Origin: Candidatus Hodarchaeota archaeon
GTDB lineage: Archaea > Asgardarchaeota > Lokiarchaeia > Sigyniarchaeales > SOKP01
Length of the DNA stretch: 64,000 nucleotides
Direction of reading: 5' to 3'
NCBI GenBank assembly: GCA_048887225.1
Contig: JBHLJY010000011.1
Coordinates: 13,326-77,325, forward strand
The position numbers were made by a program, and so were the translations under genes. Each line of letters opens with the position of its first letter. The first letter of the stretch is position 1. Positions 44,018 through 50,407 of the stretch are shown one piece after another. The notes beneath the pieces were generated by a model. That model searched no databases and was not told the DNA's origin. It saw only the letters and a list, made by a program, of their open reading frames with translations.

Positions 44018-47000
44018 TTGACTTATATTAAAAAAATTAGCATGTCAGGTTTCAAATCCTTTGGAGATCGAACGGTAACAGTTAAGCTTTCAAGCGGCTT
44101 TACTTGTATTGTTGGGCCTAATGGTGCTGGAAAGTCTAATATCATTGATGCGTTATGCTTTGCATTAGGAAGATTAAGCAAGAAGACAATGAGAGCAAAA
44201 TCCCTAGAAGATCTTATTTTTGCGGGTTCAAAAGGTAAAAATCCTGCTAATAGGGCTATGGTTACTTTGCACTTTGATAACTCTGAAAGCGTATTTCCGG
44301 GTGGCGCAAACGGAGATTTTACTATTAGTCGAACTATAAAGAGAGGCGGGGGGGGTGGTTATAAAATGAATGGTAAAAAAGCCACTCGACAACAAATTCT
44401 TAATGCCCTAGCTACAGCTAATATAGATCCTGATGGAACTAACCAATTTGTCCTTCAAGGTAAGATAGTCGAATTAACTCATATGAACTCTGAGGATCGC
44501 AGAAGATTTATTGAAGAACTTATTGGGCTTCAAAAATACGATGAAATGAAAGATGCAACACTAAAGGAACTTGAAAAAGCAGAGCGAGATCTTGGCCAAT
44601 TTGAGGCAATCTTCAATGAAGTATCTGCTCAATTAAGAAAAGTTGAAAAGGAAAAAAATGACGCGCTTGCATGGCGTGAACTAGATGATCAAATAAGTCA
44701 TTATAACGCTCAATTAATCTCTTTGAAAATTTCAAAATTACAAAAAGAAGAAGAAGAATTAGATAAAAAAATCGAAGAATCTGGTAAAGTCATTGAAGAA
44801 TTACAAGAAAAAATAGTTAGACAAGAGGATATTCTGAAACAAGAAACCCTCGTTATGGAAAATATCCAAAAAACTATAACTGAAAAAGAAAAAGAAAGAG
44901 AAGAAATAAACGAAGGTATTACGCAATTAAAGACGCAGTTATCTTCTAATCAAACTACTTTAGATTTAGCTGAAAAATCAATTGAAAAATTAAGACTAGA
45001 AAAGGAAAATTTAGAAAACTTACTAATGACTCTTGAAGAGGGTCAGAATTTTGATTCTCAAATTAAAATTGTAACTATAGAAATCTCTGAAAAAGAAGCA
45101 CAAATAGAAAATGCAAAACAAGATATTGAAAAAAGGCAGCAAAACCAAGCTGAACTAGATATTAAAATTAATAATAGTGAAGATGAAAAATCTAATTTTA
45201 AATTAGAAATTTCGAAAGTTAAACAACAAATCTCATCAAACAAGGCACAAATTAAACTTCTTCGAGAAAATATAAAAAAAAATAAAGATAAGAAAAAGAA
45301 TTTAGAGGCAGAATTAAATAGATTAAAGGGAGAGGCTGAGAGTGTAGAAGATGCTGTTGAAGCGACAAGAAAAATTGAAAGCGAGATTAGAAAAAGAATT
45401 GAAGACTTAAAAAATAAAATTTCTGAAGAAAATAAGAGACAAATGAATTTAGAAAACTCAGTTAGTTCTACACTAAAAGTGAAAAGTGATTTAAATTCAA
45501 AATTATCTGGTTTACAAGCAACATTATCGTCTCTTAATACAGAAATTAAAATGAAAAAAGAGACTATTGCGGAGTTGAATACGAAAAAAGCAGACATTGG
45601 AAAAAAAATTAAAGAATTAAGTAAAGGTAAAGAAACGGAAGAAATTATAAAAGAACTCATAAAAGAAAAAGAAAATAATATTAAAAAAATTACTAACTTA
45701 AAGGCTAAATCCAAAAACGAGGATTCAATTTATCGCGAGAACGAACAAAATTTTGAATTATTAAAATTGAAACAAAACTCTATTGAAACTGAAATTATTG
45801 ATAATAAAGGAAAAATTTCAAACATCAATACCGAACTAAAAATATTTAAAAAAGAATTAATGAACTTAGAGCGTGAAAAACGAAATTTAGACTTAATTAT
45901 TAATGATTTGAACGCTAATATCTCAAAAACAGGAAAAGAAATAAAAAACTTCAATATAAAAAAAGAAAATATCCAAAGACGGCTAAATGAACTCTCTAAA
46001 GAGAAGGAAACTTTATTGAACAGGATTGAAAATACAGAAGAAGAATATGAGAAAAATAAAGAGGATATCACAGGAATTCTACAAATCCTAAATATGCTTA
46101 CTCAAAATATCGATGTGTCTGTAGAATCTATTAAGGGCTCTATACAACAATCAAATACCGAAGCGATTAATACATCTGCGGAAGATTTTAGAAAATTCGT
46201 ATTAGACATTGTTGATATAATGAAAACTCTAGAGAGCGTAGGTGGTGACGCAGATGAAATATCTGAAATGACAGATATGCTTAATTCTATAGTTCAAACA
46301 TTAGGGATTTTTACTGAAAATGCTGATGCTACAATTGAACAACTTATTAATAAAGTAAAGGACTCAGCTGATATTGCAGTACAAAGTTCTACATCAGATT
46401 TTGATAGTTTTGTTCAAGACTTAACATATATCCTTGAAAATGTACATTTGTCTTTAAGAAAATTAACTTTATCTAAAAGTCAAGAGCTTTATAAACAGTT
46501 AGAAGAAATTTCAAATAATATCAAATCTCAAGATGATGACTTAAATGATATTGAGAGAAAACTAACAATAGTGAGTAGTCAAAATAAACATGATTCAGAA
46601 AAACTCTCAGCATCAAAACGAAGGCTTGAGGAAGTTCACAAAAGAATGAAAGATTTAAACTTAAAAGAAGAAAAATATAAGAAAGAAATAGAGGAAAGGA
46701 ATAAGAAAATAAAAGAAAGACAAAGTAATTATGATGATTTAAATAATGAAATAAATAAATTAAAGGAAATAAAAGATAGATACTGGGATAATATTTCTGA
46801 AATTCAAAATGAGAGTGATAGAATCCAAATTGAATTAAACAATAATCAAGAAAAACTTCAAGAACTAGAAGGAATTCAAACTTTATTTGAAAATATAGCA
46901 GATATTGACAATATAATGCTTGAATTGAATAATACTATAGAAGAAAAGAAAAAACTAATAATCGATACTGGAACGAAAATTAATAAGGTACAACAAGAAG

Positions 47001-48475
47001 CAGAATCTTTACAGAAAAAGATAGAAACTTTAACCAGCGACAAAGAGAAATTTTGGGAAACAACTGAGGATATACAGATCAAAATAGATGAAGAAAATAA
47101 AAAATTAGAAGAAACAATAGATGTTCTAAGAGGTCTCGATAATATAATGAGAATTATCCATTCAATTGAAGAATTAAAAAAAGAAAACGTAGAAGCAAAT
47201 AAAAACATTGAACTAAGCAAAAAAAAGATGGATAACTATAATTCTGAAGTTGATAAAATCCAAAAAAATGTTGAAGATAAACAAAGAGTAATAGATACAT
47301 TAAGAGATGAAAAGGCTGCAGAATTAGAAGAGCAAAAGAAAGCTCAAAATAAATTAAATAAGTTAAATAAAAATTTACAGAAAACTCAAGCTAAATTAAA
47401 TGAATTATATAAAAATAAAGAAAGAGAACAACAAATAATCAAAATTGGAGAGAATATCAAAGAGACAGAAAAACAAACAGAAGTTTTAGTAAAAAAAATT
47501 GGAAAACTTGATGAAAATTTAGAAAACGAAATCAAGAAAAAAGATGCAAAACAGGCGGAAATAGATGAATTTATTAAAGAAAAAGATGAATCTTGGAAAA
47601 AGCAAAAACAATATCAAAATATAATTACTGATCTTAAGTCAGATCTTTCAATGGAGAATTCTAAAATAAACAATTTTGAATCTAAAAAATTTATTTGTAT
47701 TGATCAGATTGAAACTTTATATGAGAGATCAAAAGATTATGGTACTCTACCTCCAGTAACTGATGAGATCACGGAAGAGGGCCTACAATCGGATATTGAA
47801 ATTGCTACAAAAAAGAAAAAAGCACTTGAGCCCGTCAATTTAAAAGCTATTGAACAATACGATGTTGTTAAAGAAAGATTTGATGAAATAGATATGCGAA
47901 GACAAACAATTCAAAGAGAAAGAAAGGCAATTCTTGACTCAATTGATAAAATTGAATTAGAAAAAACACGTACCTTTATGAAAGCTTATCACGAAATTAA
48001 TCGTGAGTTTTCACGGATTTTCCAGAAACTTTCTCCTGGTGGTTCAGCAAAAATGATTCTGGATAGACCTGATAAACCCTTTGAAGGCGGAATTAGCATT
48101 GAGGCAAGACCAAGGGGTAAAAAGATTAGTTCCCTAGAAATTTTAAGTGGAGGTGAAAAAACATTAGTAGCATTATCATTTATTTTTGCTGTTCAAGAAT
48201 TTTATCCTGCTCCGTTTTACATTTTAGATGAGATTGATGCCGCATTAGACGGTCCAAATGTTCATCGCGTTAGTATGGTGCTCAAAGAATTCTCAAGCCA
48301 AGCTCAATTTTTAGTGATTAGCCATCGAGAAGAAAATATTGTTAATGCAGATAGAATTTATGGAGTTTCGATGCCGCAAAGCGGAATCACTGATATATTT
48401 AGTGTCGATTTAGAAGAAGAAGCAAAAAGACTTCTTGAACTTGAAGATGTCGTGCCTGAAGTTGGAGAGGGCTAA
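44018..48475 (+). CDS. smc: SMC chromosome segregation ATPase, atypical (long arms, no canonical hinge)
   Basis: GFKSF, GPNGAGKSN, Q-loop VLQG, PVNLKA, LSGGEK, YILDEIDAALD, ISH; TTG start with GGGAGA upstream. Confidence 0.93.
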   Translation: MTYIKKISMSGFKSFGDRTVTVKLSSGFTCIVGPNGAGKSNIIDALCFALGRLSKKTMRAKSLEDLIFAGSKGKNPANRAMVTLHFDNSESVFPGGANGDFTISRTIKRGGGGGYKMNGKKATRQQILNALATANIDPDGTNQFVLQGKIVELTHMNSEDRRRFIEELIGLQKYDEMKDATLKELEKAERDLGQFEAIFNEVSAQLRKVEKEKNDALAWRELDDQISHYNAQLISLKISKLQKEEEELDKKIEESGKVIEELQEKIVRQEDILKQETLVMENIQKTITEKEKEREEINEGITQLKTQLSSNQTTLDLAEKSIEKLRLEKENLENLLMTLEEGQNFDSQIKIVTIEISEKEAQIENAKQDIEKRQQNQAELDIKINNSEDEKSNFKLEISKVKQQISSNKAQIKLLRENIKKNKDKKKNLEAELNRLKGEAESVEDAVEATRKIESEIRKRIEDLKNKISEENKRQMNLENSVSSTLKVKSDLNSKLSGLQATLSSLNTEIKMKKETIAELNTKKADIGKKIKELSKGKETEEIIKELIKEKENNIKKITNLKAKSKNEDSIYRENEQNFELLKLKQNSIETEIIDNKGKISNINTELKIFKKELMNLEREKRNLDLIINDLNANISKTGKEIKNFNIKKENIQRRLNELSKEKETLLNRIENTEEEYEKNKEDITGILQILNMLTQNIDVSVESIKGSIQQSNTEAINTSAEDFRKFVLDIVDIMKTLESVGGDADEISEMTDMLNSIVQTLGIFTENADATIEQLINKVKDSADIAVQSSTSDFDSFVQDLTYILENVHLSLRKLTLSKSQELYKQLEEISNNIKSQDDDLNDIERKLTIVSSQNKHDSEKLSASKRRLEEVHKRMKDLNLKEEKYKKEIEERNKKIKERQSNYDDLNNEINKLKEIKDRYWDNISEIQNESDRIQIELNNNQEKLQELEGIQTLFENIADIDNIMLELNNTIEEKKKLIIDTGTKINKVQQEAESLQKKIETLTSDKEKFWETTEDIQIKIDEENKKLEETIDVLRGLDNIMRIIHSIEELKKENVEANKNIELSKKKMDNYNSEVDKIQKNVEDKQRVIDTLRDEKAAELEEQKKAQNKLNKLNKNLQKTQAKLNELYKNKEREQQIIKIGENIKETEKQTEVLVKKIGKLDENLENEIKKKDAKQAEIDEFIKEKDESWKKQKQYQNIITDLKSDLSMENSKINNFESKKFICIDQIETLYERSKDYGTLPPVTDEITEEGLQSDIEIATKKKKALEPVNLKAIEQYDVVKERFDEIDMRRQTIQRERKAILDSIDKIELEKTRTFMKAYHEINREFSRIFQKLSPGGSAKMILDRPDKPFEGGISIEARPRGKKISSLEILSGGEKTLVALSFIFAVQEFYPAPFYILDEIDAALDGPNVHRVSMVLKEFSSQAQFLVISHREENIVNADRIYGVSMPQSGITDIFSVDLEEEAKRLLELEDVVPEVGEG

Positions 48476-48493: not shown

Positions 48494-49498
48494 GTGTTAA
48501 TAATTTCAGATGAGAAAAGTTCTATGAAAGATATCGATTTTTACAAATGGACAGTAAAGGAATTAAAAGAATTTTGTAGTAAGAATAATATAAAAATACC
48601 CGCAAAGTCTAGAAAAAAAGATATCGTAGAACTTATTCAAAATATAGTATCACATCCTGATTTTATTGATAGATCACAAGAAGAAATGTTAGAAGAAGAA
48701 ATAGTTGCGGAATTTGTTGATGAAGATCTTGCGTTATTAAGAAAAGAGAAAATGGATTTAAAATTTTGGCAAAAACCTCCCTATTCTTCATTATTGGATC
48801 TTGAATTAGCTAAAGATTCTGAACTAGTATTTTATGATTTAGCTAACTTGATTGAAAAATTCTTTTCTAAAATGCTTCAAGAAGATTTAATTAATTATAA
48901 AATTTCAGGAATTGCACTAAAATCAGCAGCATCTTTACATCATTATAAAATTTCTAGCATAATAAAAGAAGAAGAACAGATTCAAAAAATGGAGGAACTA
49001 GAAAAATTAAGGGCTAGACATTCAAGAACGATTCCTAAATCATTACCGCAACCTACAAAACCTAAAATGCAATTAGCCACAAAAGAAGAATTATTTGATG
49101 CAATGAGAGCTGCAATCATTGAAACTATGCAAAACAAAGAAAAATTGAAACGTCGACGGTTGCACAGAGAAGAAGAAAAACAGAAAAGATTACAAATGAA
49201 GTCAAAAGCAAAATTACCTAAAGAACTCTTAAAACACATTAGCGGAAAAGAACAATCTATAGAAGAATTACATGAAAGCTGGTTTAATAGAATAAAAGGA
49301 ACAATTAATCTTAACAATGTGGATACGAGTTTTTTTGATCTTCTCAAGATAATAAAAAGCGACGAAAAAAGTCGCATTGGCAGGAAGTTTGCTCTTGTAA
49401 GATTGTTCTTAGCCCTAATGTTCTTGAGTACTAATAATAAAATTGAGTTATTTCAAGATGATGAATTTAAAGATGTTTCAATTAGTCTTAAAAAATAA
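48494..49498 (+). CDS. scpA: Kleisin ScpA with N-terminal HeH/SAP-like domain
   Basis: DL..LIEKF.......NY..SG.AL..AA.L..YK N-kleisin segment and FLAL.FL....I.L.Q...F.D C-terminal wHTH; lies between smc and scpB. Confidence 0.85.
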   Translation: MLIISDEKSSMKDIDFYKWTVKELKEFCSKNNIKIPAKSRKKDIVELIQNIVSHPDFIDRSQEEMLEEEIVAEFVDEDLALLRKEKMDLKFWQKPPYSSLLDLELAKDSELVFYDLANLIEKFFSKMLQEDLINYKISGIALKSAASLHHYKISSIIKEEEQIQKMEELEKLRARHSRTIPKSLPQPTKPKMQLATKEELFDAMRAAIIETMQNKEKLKRRRLHREEEKQKRLQMKSKAKLPKELLKHISGKEQSIEELHESWFNRIKGTINLNNVDTSFFDLLKIIKSDEKSRIGRKFALVRLFLALMFLSTNNKIELFQDDEFKDVSISLKK

Positions 49499-49531: not shown

Positions 49532-50407
49532 TTGAATAATTTTAATGAAGATTTAGATGAGAATTCTAAAGAAGATAATGAAGATCATTTAGATCAGGAG
49601 TCAAAAGAAGAATCAAATGATCTTTCAAATGAAGAAATTGATGAAATTCCCAAGATTCAATCTCAAGGAAGCGCTACTAAAGGTACTAGTGAAGAAATTA
49701 TTGACGATATAATTTCAAAAAGCGAGATCGATGCTCAAATAGGATTTTCTTCGAAGTCTGATCTTTCTGAAGAAGATATGTTAGTAAGACAATTAAGGGA
49801 TTTTCATCGAAATCAAATTGAAGCTTCTCTTTATGTAGCAGGCAGACCATTGAGTATTGAAGAATTATCAACTAAACTCGAAATTAAAAAAAAAGAAGTT
49901 GAAGAATTAATCAATGAAATTGCTTTCGATTATTTAGATCGTTCAACTGCCCTGGTAATTGCTCAAATAGGAGATAGCTACCAAATGCAAATTAAACCTG
50001 AATATGCAGAAAAAGTCTCAAAATTAGCTAAAGGTGGTGCTATAGCAGAGAGGTACTTAAGAACATTAACTATTATCGCTTTGAAACAACCTATTTTGAA
50101 ATCTTTAGTTGTGAAAATAAGAGGAAGCGGAGCTTATGAGCATATCAAATATCTTCAGGATAACGGTCTAATCGCTGCGGTGAAAAAAGGAAGAACACAC
50201 GAGTTAACTACAACGGATAAATATTCTGAAATGTTTGGATTACCAAAAGATATAGAAGAACTGAAAAGAGTAATGATCTCGCAATTAGGTCTTGATGAAG
50301 TAGAATCTGGAGATGAAATTTCTTATGAAATTGAAGTACCTGCCGAAGATAATGTATTTTCTGAAGATGAAGAATCATCTGAAAATGAAGAAAATACTCA
50401 AGAATAA
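49532..50407 (+). CDS. scpB: KITE subunit ScpB with acidic N- and C-terminal extensions
   Basis: IEA.LY....PLS, Y.MQ.K.EY, TL.IIA.KQPI, IRG, TT..Y...FGL. Confidence 0.92.
   Translation: MNNFNEDLDENSKEDNEDHLDQESKEESNDLSNEEIDEIPKIQSQGSATKGTSEEIIDDIISKSEIDAQIGFSSKSDLSEEDMLVRQLRDFHRNQIEASLYVAGRPLSIEELSTKLEIKKKEVEELINEIAFDYLDRSTALVIAQIGDSYQMQIKPEYAEKVSKLAKGGAIAERYLRTLTIIALKQPILKSLVVKIRGSGAYEHIKYLQDNGLIAAVKKGRTHELTTTDKYSEMFGLPKDIEELKRVMISQLGLDEVESGDEISYEIEVPAEDNVFSEDEESSENEENTQE

Follow-up and report, generated by a model that had tools for sequence, protein, structure and literature searches.

The stretch of DNA analysed here (the window) comprises 64,000 nucleotides of a Lokiarchaeial genome deposited as Candidatus Hodarchaeota archaeon (assembly GCA_048887225.1, contig JBHLJY010000011.1, positions 13,326 to 77,325 of the forward strand). 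At positions 44018..48475 of its plus strand, a single open reading frame with a TTG start encodes a hinge-less SMC paralogue of 1485 amino acids (aa), whose two long coiled-coil arms are built from four tandem repeat units each. At the level of the heads, the protein is of the canonical Smc type. The translation contains a Walker A motif (GPNGAGKS), a signature motif (LSGGEKT), a Walker B/D-loop (FYILDEIDAALD) and an H-loop (ISHR), and a Pfam scan matches SMC_N (PF02463) to residues 3-1458 as a split head with an E-value of 2.5e-45. Both the N-terminal and the C-terminal halves of the head are thus present, as in the ATPases of the SMC family.

Head domains, apex and partner genes

The assignment of the protein within the SMC family relies on its heads and on the region where a hinge would be expected. 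No match to the SMC_hinge family (PF06470) was obtained in the whole protein at E <= 0.01, nor in aa 660-880 at E <= 0.1. The same genome also encodes a canonical Smc, 1193 aa long, which does possess a hinge (PF06470, E 3e-33) and adjoins an ScpB gene. The heads of both paralogues are about equally close to those of Pyrococcus Smc (E 1e-119 and 1e-113; the closest head match of the 1485-aa protein in the PDB is 5xei, E 9.5e-119) and far from SMC5/6 or Rad50, which indicates, as judged from sequence, that the hinge-less protein is a lineage-specific paralogue of the canonical Smc and not an ordinary SMC. On similarity scores alone, an SMC5/6-type affiliation was rejected, given that the SMC5/6 structures in the PDB match the head far worse (E 3e-10 to 3e-7) than Pyrococcus Smc does. 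An SMC5/6-related archaeal SMC has been described (PMC8665677; bioRxiv 10.1101/2024.01.07.573240), but its heads group with those of eukaryotic SMC5/6 (Yoshinaga and Inagaki 2021), whereas the Lokiarchaeial heads are nearest to Smc in similarity. At the canonical Smc locus (G000:C15:45989-50138; L058:7990-12124, minus strand), a 190-aa ScpB gene directly follows Smc, and no ScpA gene was found between the two or immediately downstream. Genomes of family f3 (L070, L071; G143:C1:4297800-4303200 and G138:C1:2913500-2918900) contain a third SMC-like frame, 1187 aa long, whose match to the hinge is marginal (E 5e-6 to 1.5e-4), and none was found in the genome of the window at E <= 0.001.

The predicted overall topology of a head, a long antiparallel coil and a compact apex recurs in other SMC-like ATPases, among them Rad50/SbcC, RecN and MukB, in which a hook or a small apex terminates the coil where a canonical hinge would otherwise be. 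Compared with Rad50/SbcC, the Lokiarchaeial protein has no CxxC zinc hook, and its heads are far nearer to Smc (E 1e-119) than to Rad50 (E 1.8e-7). It contains only three Cys residues, none of them in the apex, and its gene is adjoined by a kleisin-like gene and ScpB and not by Mre11 or MukEF. An identity as Rad50/SbcC was rejected on these grounds. SMC variants with a head and a coil that likewise have no hinge have been reported from metagenomes of marine Actinobacteria (PMC12153180). They belong to another domain of life and another clade, and PMC12153180 reports neither arm repeats nor module variants nor a co-occurring canonical paralogue, so that the two groups are set apart here by description. 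A literature search retrieved no paper on this Lokiarchaeial hinge-less SMC or on repeats in SMC arms.

The SMC gene is followed on the plus strand by a kleisin-like gene of 334 aa (48494..49498) and by a ScpB (kite) gene of 291 aa (49532..50407; Pfam SMC_ScpB, E 3.1e-36). The kleisin-like protein matches SMC_ScpA below threshold (E 5.5e-4, 20.4 bits against a curated cut-off of 24.6) and carries a weak SAP/HeH-like N-terminus (aa 17-49), this SAP/Ish1-like motif being matched by the Pfam family Ish1 at E 7.3e-5. A conserved core links it, at 35% identity (E 8e-40), to the 404-aa product of the gene that comes after the SMC in a locus (L059) of the shorter, three-module sister clade described below, and the order SMC, kleisin-like gene, ScpB is kept in the loci of both clades. 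In its Smc-type heads, its kleisin-like and ScpB genes and its long, presumably antiparallel coil, the system resembles the prokaryotic Smc-ScpAB of Bacillus subtilis and Pyrococcus, from which it differs by the missing hinge and by arms of approximately 569 aa per side as compared to about 350.

In place of the hinge, the protein carries an apex domain (aa ~690-820, 46085..46477, plus strand) with a turn at aa 741-748 (GGDADE), which is predicted by AlphaFold2 to be all-helical and matches no Pfam family. Confidence in this part of the model is low (predicted local distance difference test, pLDDT, 43-64), and the model is entirely helical from residue 540 to 950. A profile search with the apex returned 40 clusters among 1.84 billion representative proteins. 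Apex-like regions were also observed near the N-terminus (residues ~67-236) of non-SMC proteins of ~920-1290 aa (L050-L057 of family f3, and P0133, P0134, P0138, P0142, P0144, P0146 and P0155). P0155 has up to 8 apex-matched stretches and L051 starts with a hydrophobic N-terminus. The shorter f3 proteins that match the apex query (925-1289 aa) were discarded as SMC candidates, being headless and giving no SMC Pfam match. Such apex-bearing proteins may be the source, or a relative, of the SMC apex repeat.

Repeat units in the two arms

The N-terminal arm can be divided on the plus strand into the units N1 (aa 240-336, 44735..45025), N2 (aa 337-434, i.e. 98 aa, 45026..45319), N3 (aa 435-531, 45320..45610) and the apex-proximal N4 (aa 532-628, 45611..45901). 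The last three start with loops, predicted at aa 336-344 (LEEGQNF), 437-442 (KGEAES) and 536-539 (KGKE), and G537 of the N4 loop is invariant. The C-terminal arm, on the same strand, consists of the apex-proximal C1 (aa 845-934, 46550..46819), C2 (aa 935-1024, 46820..47089, with a break EG at 951-952), C3 (aa 1025-1114, 47090..47359) and the head-proximal C4 (aa 1115-1204, 47360..47629), C3 and C4 each containing a shift of -1 in the heptad frame, at ~1042 and ~1131 respectively. These units correspond to the four repeats of ~97 aa and four of 90 aa that the initial annotation of this DNA had put forward, and their periods turned out to be 97/98 aa for the N units and 90 aa for the C units. 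The motifs on which that proposal was based are located exactly where it had placed them in the translation. In the N arm these are LSSN (308-311), ISSN (405-408), LSSL (503-506) and ISNI (600-603), with their first Ser at 309, 406, 504 and 601, and the Gly-containing breaks LEEG (339-342), LKG (436-438) and SKG (535-537); in the C arm KDRYW, KEKFW, KAAEL and KDESW end at aa 923, 1013, 1103 and 1193.

When profiles of the single units were compared with hhalign, all 12 within-arm pairs gave in-register alignments that span 65-95 columns, at scores of 30-86 and E-values of 2e-5 to 3.5e-16. The best pair was N2-N3 (E 3.5e-16, score 86), and the longest alignment covered 95 of 97 columns. Among the other pairs, N1-N2 reached E 1.6e-8, N1-N3 1.4e-10, N3-N4 2.8e-11, C1-C2 8.1e-10, C2-C3 4.4e-11 and C3-C4 1.7e-8. 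In contrast, the 16 cross-arm pairs of N with C units scored 17-36 and were out of register. Six of these 16 share a constant offset of 20 columns (best E 2.8e-6, a little better than units against canonical arms), and heptad phase sets the offsets between N and C units; a common origin of N and C units is conceivable. Neither did the flanking arm segments behave as further units. The flanks N0, C0 and C5 scored 15.6 at most, and the apex-proximal N flank N5 (629-700) aligned out of register at a score of 31, within the cross-arm background, so that a fifth unit was rejected and exactly four units per arm are indicated. Homology of the units to canonical Smc arms was also rejected, since these matches (E 8e-5 or worse) stay at background level. 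The Lokiarchaeial arms thus differ from those of prokaryotic Smc in carrying legible sequence repeats and in having no specific similarity to canonical arms.

The periodicity was also evident without any prior division into units. A BLOSUM autocorrelation of the C arm rises above the heptad lags at lag 90 (z 8.9) and also at lag 180, and that of the N arm does so at lag 195 (z 6.9). The same lags recur in ten orthologues at 33-36% arm identity, each of which, taken by itself, has z values of 5.7-8.7 at lag 90 and 6.1-8.1 at lag 195, whereas the canonical Smc encoded in the genome of the window gives heptad lags only and no lag of the 90/97 type. The significance of these signals was assessed against a null in which residues are permuted solely inside their own heptad-register class (1000 shuffles; the arm profile comprised 35 sequences). 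Under this null, lag 90 of the C arm has z 5.4 for the single sequence and 6.9 for the profile, and the N-arm profile has z 5.4 at lag 195, 5.0 at lag 97 and 4.1 at lag 98. The observed profile maximum was reached by 0 of 1000 shuffles in either arm, and the repeats consequently stand up to the shuffled coiled-coil controls that the initial annotation had named as their decisive check.

These controls bear directly on the idea that the repeats are a low-complexity artefact, produced by chance matches among heptads rich in Glu, Lys, Ile and Leu. Such an artefact would agree with the N arm as a single ungapped sequence, which is not significant by itself (88 of 1000 shuffles), a result explained by the alternation of its lag between 97 and 98. 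It would equally agree with the Smith-Waterman comparisons of single sequences, where most unit pairs fall inside the canonical-arm background, the 99th percentile (85-96) being reached by C2-C3 (102), N1-N2 (90) and N2-N3 (89) alone; for this reason profile comparisons were used. It does not agree with the shuffles, nor with the fact that the within-arm matches are all in register while this holds neither for the cross-arm and canonical-arm controls nor for three of the four flanks, the remaining flank, N5, being the one that scores 31 out of register, at cross-arm background. It is also at odds with the recurrence of identical lags in ten divergent orthologues, as well as with a difference of 97 + 90 aa that is found in nature. 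On the basis of the shuffle, cross-arm, canonical-arm and flank controls this hardly credible reading can be taken as already refuted. The in-register units, which exceed both the register-preserving null and the natural controls, identify the arms, in terms of sequence, as a tandem-repeat coiled coil that probably arose by internal duplication.

Predicted fold, distribution and the three-module clade

An AlphaFold2 model of aa 170-1320 (pLDDT 76; predicted template-modelling score, pTM, 0.31) was read as a summary of secondary structure. It is helical throughout except for breaks at 336-344, 437-442, 536-539, 818-820, 951-952, 1242-1252 and 1271-1276 and the turn at 741-748, the first three breaks coinciding with the Gly-containing interruptions (LEEG, LKG and SKG) that had been proposed to separate the N units. 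The turn divides the model into an N side of 569 aa (172-740) and a C side of 570 aa (749-1318), which fits a symmetric hairpin; the length of ~510 aa initially given for each arm is approximate, the figure being ~569 aa per side when measured from head to apex turn. One N period consists of a helix of 92-93 aa and a loop of 4-9 aa. The helix lengths of 92 and 93 match the 90-residue period of the C arm, and the extra 5-8 residues of the N period correspond to the loops. A heptad pattern is present throughout the arms, and profile tracking detects frame shifts of -1 in the C arm at ~955, ~1042 and ~1131, i.e. one per 90 aa (13 heptads minus one residue), and in the N arm at ~340 and ~540, where 195 aa equal 28 heptads minus one. 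When helical residues are counted from the apex, the N loop 536-539 lies opposite the C break 951-952 (201 residues on the N strand versus 198-202 on the C strand), and the C frame shifts at ~1042 and ~1131 lie about one heptad or less from the positions of the N loops 437-442 and 336-344. From this we infer that every module boundary could be a joint on both strands, and that the arm would be a rod of four coiled-coil segments of ~13 nm each.

The repeats might be real and nonetheless fold differently, each unit turning back locally to form spectrin-like or helical-bundle beads, with the link to a superhelical period being coincidental. Spectrin repeats have a length near that of these units. 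This closeness to 90-98 aa, the separation of the N units by Gly-containing loops and the low pTM of the models would all be compatible with beads. The C strand of the four-module protein, however, is modelled as two uninterrupted helices (130 and 289 residues) that lack loops at the unit boundaries, even though in the three-module protein one module boundary is predicted as a low-confidence non-helical stretch of 33 residues (aa 841-873). The N and C sides are of equal length in both length classes, the two strands change by one unit together, and the best Foldseek matches to the arm model are the arms of SMC family proteins (MukB, condensin Smc2/4, Smc5/6, JetC, cohesin and Rad50). A string of locally folded beads is accordingly considered very improbable.

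The family marked by the apex is present in 134 of 400 Asgard genomes and is essentially confined to one order of the Lokiarchaeia, together with two stray genomes. Close orthologues of 1473-1487 aa are found among proteins of Lokiarchaeia/Promethearchaeota metagenome-assembled genomes, and a member of 1505 aa annotated as Smc (P0186) is carried by Ca. Lokiarchaeum ossiferum, a cultured archaeon. Complete reading frames in the order measure ~1480-1535 aa even at 26-39% identity, without stepwise length variation inside the four-module clade. Indels in the arms across the order are nearly nil, amounting to a single 2-aa deletion at aa 913 in one sequence in families at 33-36% identity. In unit trees the copies cluster by position and not by organism. 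Six of the eight units have support of 92-100, N3 and C2 being the two that do not come out as clades, so that the duplications and the four-fold structure predate the radiation of the order. Arm length has been held almost to the residue since the four-fold structure arose.

One exception to this constancy was found. The complete members retrieved with the apex profile have 1464-1497 aa and an apex at ~669-850, apart from P0149, which has 1296 aa, an apex at 575-746 and both heads intact, and falls into a clade that comprises nine clusters, 1290-1304 aa in length. Relative to the family alignment, P0149 is devoid of 97 residues of the N arm (aa 483-579) and of 90 residues of the C arm (77 + 13, aa 852-928 and 951-963). 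The spacing between Walker A and D-loop separates the 149 complete members into two classes, nine at 1177-1179 aa and 140 at 1365-1374 aa, and no value lies between them. A step of ~187 aa in the lengths of orthologues, which the initial annotation had suggested looking for, is hence found in a sister clade that is shorter by 97 (N) and 90 (C) aa. Within the genome set, this clade occurs in two genomes of one genus (G280, G281), with one copy each, in a different family of the same order. It exhibits its own lags (90/180 and 97/99, over three units) and two discontinuities per arm, and in its AlphaFold2 model (pLDDT 78.8) the N strand forms loops at 337-345 and 435-445, while the two sides, at 478 and 483 aa, are equal in length.

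The correspondence of units between the two forms locates the difference close to the apex. The three-module units a1 and a2 are orthologous to N1 (E 4.7e-18) and N2 (4e-16), and c3 and c2 to C4 (1.8e-16) and C3 (4e-18), whereas the apex-proximal units are hybrids. The first half of the N unit is N3-like and its last quarter N4-like, and the C unit starts C1-like and is C2-like in its remainder. By these alignments, the two forms differ by one whole apex-proximal module, on stretches that would pair together. In a head tree rooted on canonical Asgard Smc, the three-module and four-module clades are sister groups, which makes gain and loss indistinguishable, and the tree was given up as a means of polarising the change. 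The hybrid units would fit a loss by unequal crossing-over (N3/N4 and C1/C2) at least as well as a gain, although divergence after a gain could mimic them. Of the arm extension by whole-period duplications coordinated on both strands that had been read into this sequence, the repeats and the matched step of 97/90 aa hold, and the direction implied by the word extension is one of two that would fit.

Module number and arm geometry

Taken together, these results make it probable that the gene belongs to an additional Smc-kleisin-ScpB complex that is specific to this lineage, carries a helical apex and has a segmented four-module arm that has been resized only in whole modules and on both strands. 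According to this proposal, the gene would encode the ATPase of such a complex, the hinge having been swapped for the helical apex, and the arm would consist of four modules in tandem, which form a segmented coiled coil with antiparallel strands. Every such module would comprise an N-strand helix of 92-93 residues with a short loop, presumably paired with a C-strand segment of 90 residues that bears one -1 heptad shift, N unit k lying next to C unit 5-k. With a length of ~13 nm, one module would make roughly one superhelical turn of the coiled coil. The modules would have originated from tandem duplications on both strands before the order arose, and module number would shift in whole modules on both strands together, with four in most lineages and three in one sister clade. 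Unequal recombination between repeats may have altered this number, possibly in two successive events, and the canonical Smc paralogue may have buffered the mismatched intermediate.

This scheme finds its closest parallel in Bacillus Smc, where the viability of resized arms has a period of 91 aa, against a theoretical superhelical period of ~99 aa (Burmann et al. 2017; PMC5344682). In the same study, natural Smc arms showed length modes of 238, 341 and 515 aa with steps of ~100 aa, and neither a long-range sequence periodicity nor a periodic partner was then known (PMC5344682). The N period, with its helix of 92-93 aa plus loop, and the C period of 90 aa can be matched to these functional and superhelical periods, and the Lokiarchaeial step of 97/90 aa (mean 93.5 aa per arm) agrees with the 91-aa period as well as with the natural steps. 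If the period is the superhelical pitch, adding or removing one module would keep apex and heads in rotational register, which would be the rule of Burmann and colleagues. Long-range periods laid over heptads are likewise known from tropomyosin and the myosin II rod, and whole-period deletions of tropomyosin are tolerated while fractional ones are not (as cited in PMC5344682). Those proteins are parallel dimers matched to the lattice of actin or of the thick filament, whereas the coil considered here would be intramolecular and antiparallel, with no periodic partner known.

The nearness of the period to the superhelical pitch (PMC5344682) also admits an explanation without duplication, in which the likeness at 90 and 97 aa would have arisen by convergence under superhelical geometry or under a periodic partner decorating the arm. 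Convergence would account for a signal that is equally strong in orthologues at 33-36% identity, which points to upkeep by selection, and for the fact that the best-conserved repeated columns are particular positions, namely Lys/Arg at core 'a', Trp and Gln at 'e' and Ser at 'b', together with the SS motif. It fits less well with profile alignments that keep their register along almost the entire unit (95/97 columns at most, E to 3.5e-16) and not at a few positions, and with a signal that is abolished by register-preserving shuffles. Moreover, the canonical Smc arms of the same genome have the same geometry and show no such lag, and the gain or loss of a whole unit with a hybrid unit is the product expected of recombination between homologous repeats. 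Convergence is for these reasons regarded as unlikely, and duplication of whole modules is retained as the preferred origin.

Several points weigh against the segmented-module proposal. An antiparallel coil is suggested by the two equal helical sides, with a strand pairing derived from secondary-structure summaries and arithmetic, and the models have pTM values of only 0.31-0.32 and shallow alignments (30 and 9 sequences). The discontinuities of the C strand lie 2-8 residues off the positions predicted from the N loops. The cross-strand correlation of conservation is broad (peak r 0.5 versus a background of 0.19 +/- 0.20), and was dropped for this reason as a marker of the pairing register. 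At the protein level, pairwise identity between units is 16-26%, and at the DNA level no repeats were found at 270 or 291 nucleotides, where just A-rich chance matches occur; this indicates that the duplications are old, and recombination between units is not directly demonstrable from the DNA. The single length step that was seen belongs to a three-module class of nine protein clusters and two genomes of one genus. Finally, the measured arm lengths do not sit exactly on the Burmann modes of 238, 341 and 515 aa, for the reason that the hinge-less apex offers no comparable boundary.

At the level of the whole SMC family, the balance tips slightly towards the more general proposition that evolution can assemble SMC arms, and change their length, in quantised modules that each make a single superhelical turn, in matched N/C pairs, that the 91-aa rule is general, and that a new type of Smc-kleisin-kite complex exists. 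If this is true, the family would be the first case in nature where quantised arm resizing can be read from the sequence, and the rule obtained by engineering Bacillus Smc would become a general design principle. The family offers a natural counterpart to that engineering, with a period that is visible in sequence and two orthologous forms that stand one period apart on each strand. The three-module and four-module proteins form a natural pair, without any hinge, in which the coupling of the ATPase heads to the apex through arm length and rotational phase could be studied. The N-arm and C-arm segments that changed in step lie ~1 kb apart in the gene, and this raises the evolutionary question of how two distant segments of one gene get resized in step. 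Asgard archaea have been described as the closest prokaryotic relatives of eukaryotes (PMC8665677; bioRxiv 10.1101/2024.01.07.573240), and a complex of this new Smc-kleisin-kite type, its hinge replaced by a helical apex, would be present in cultured members of this group.

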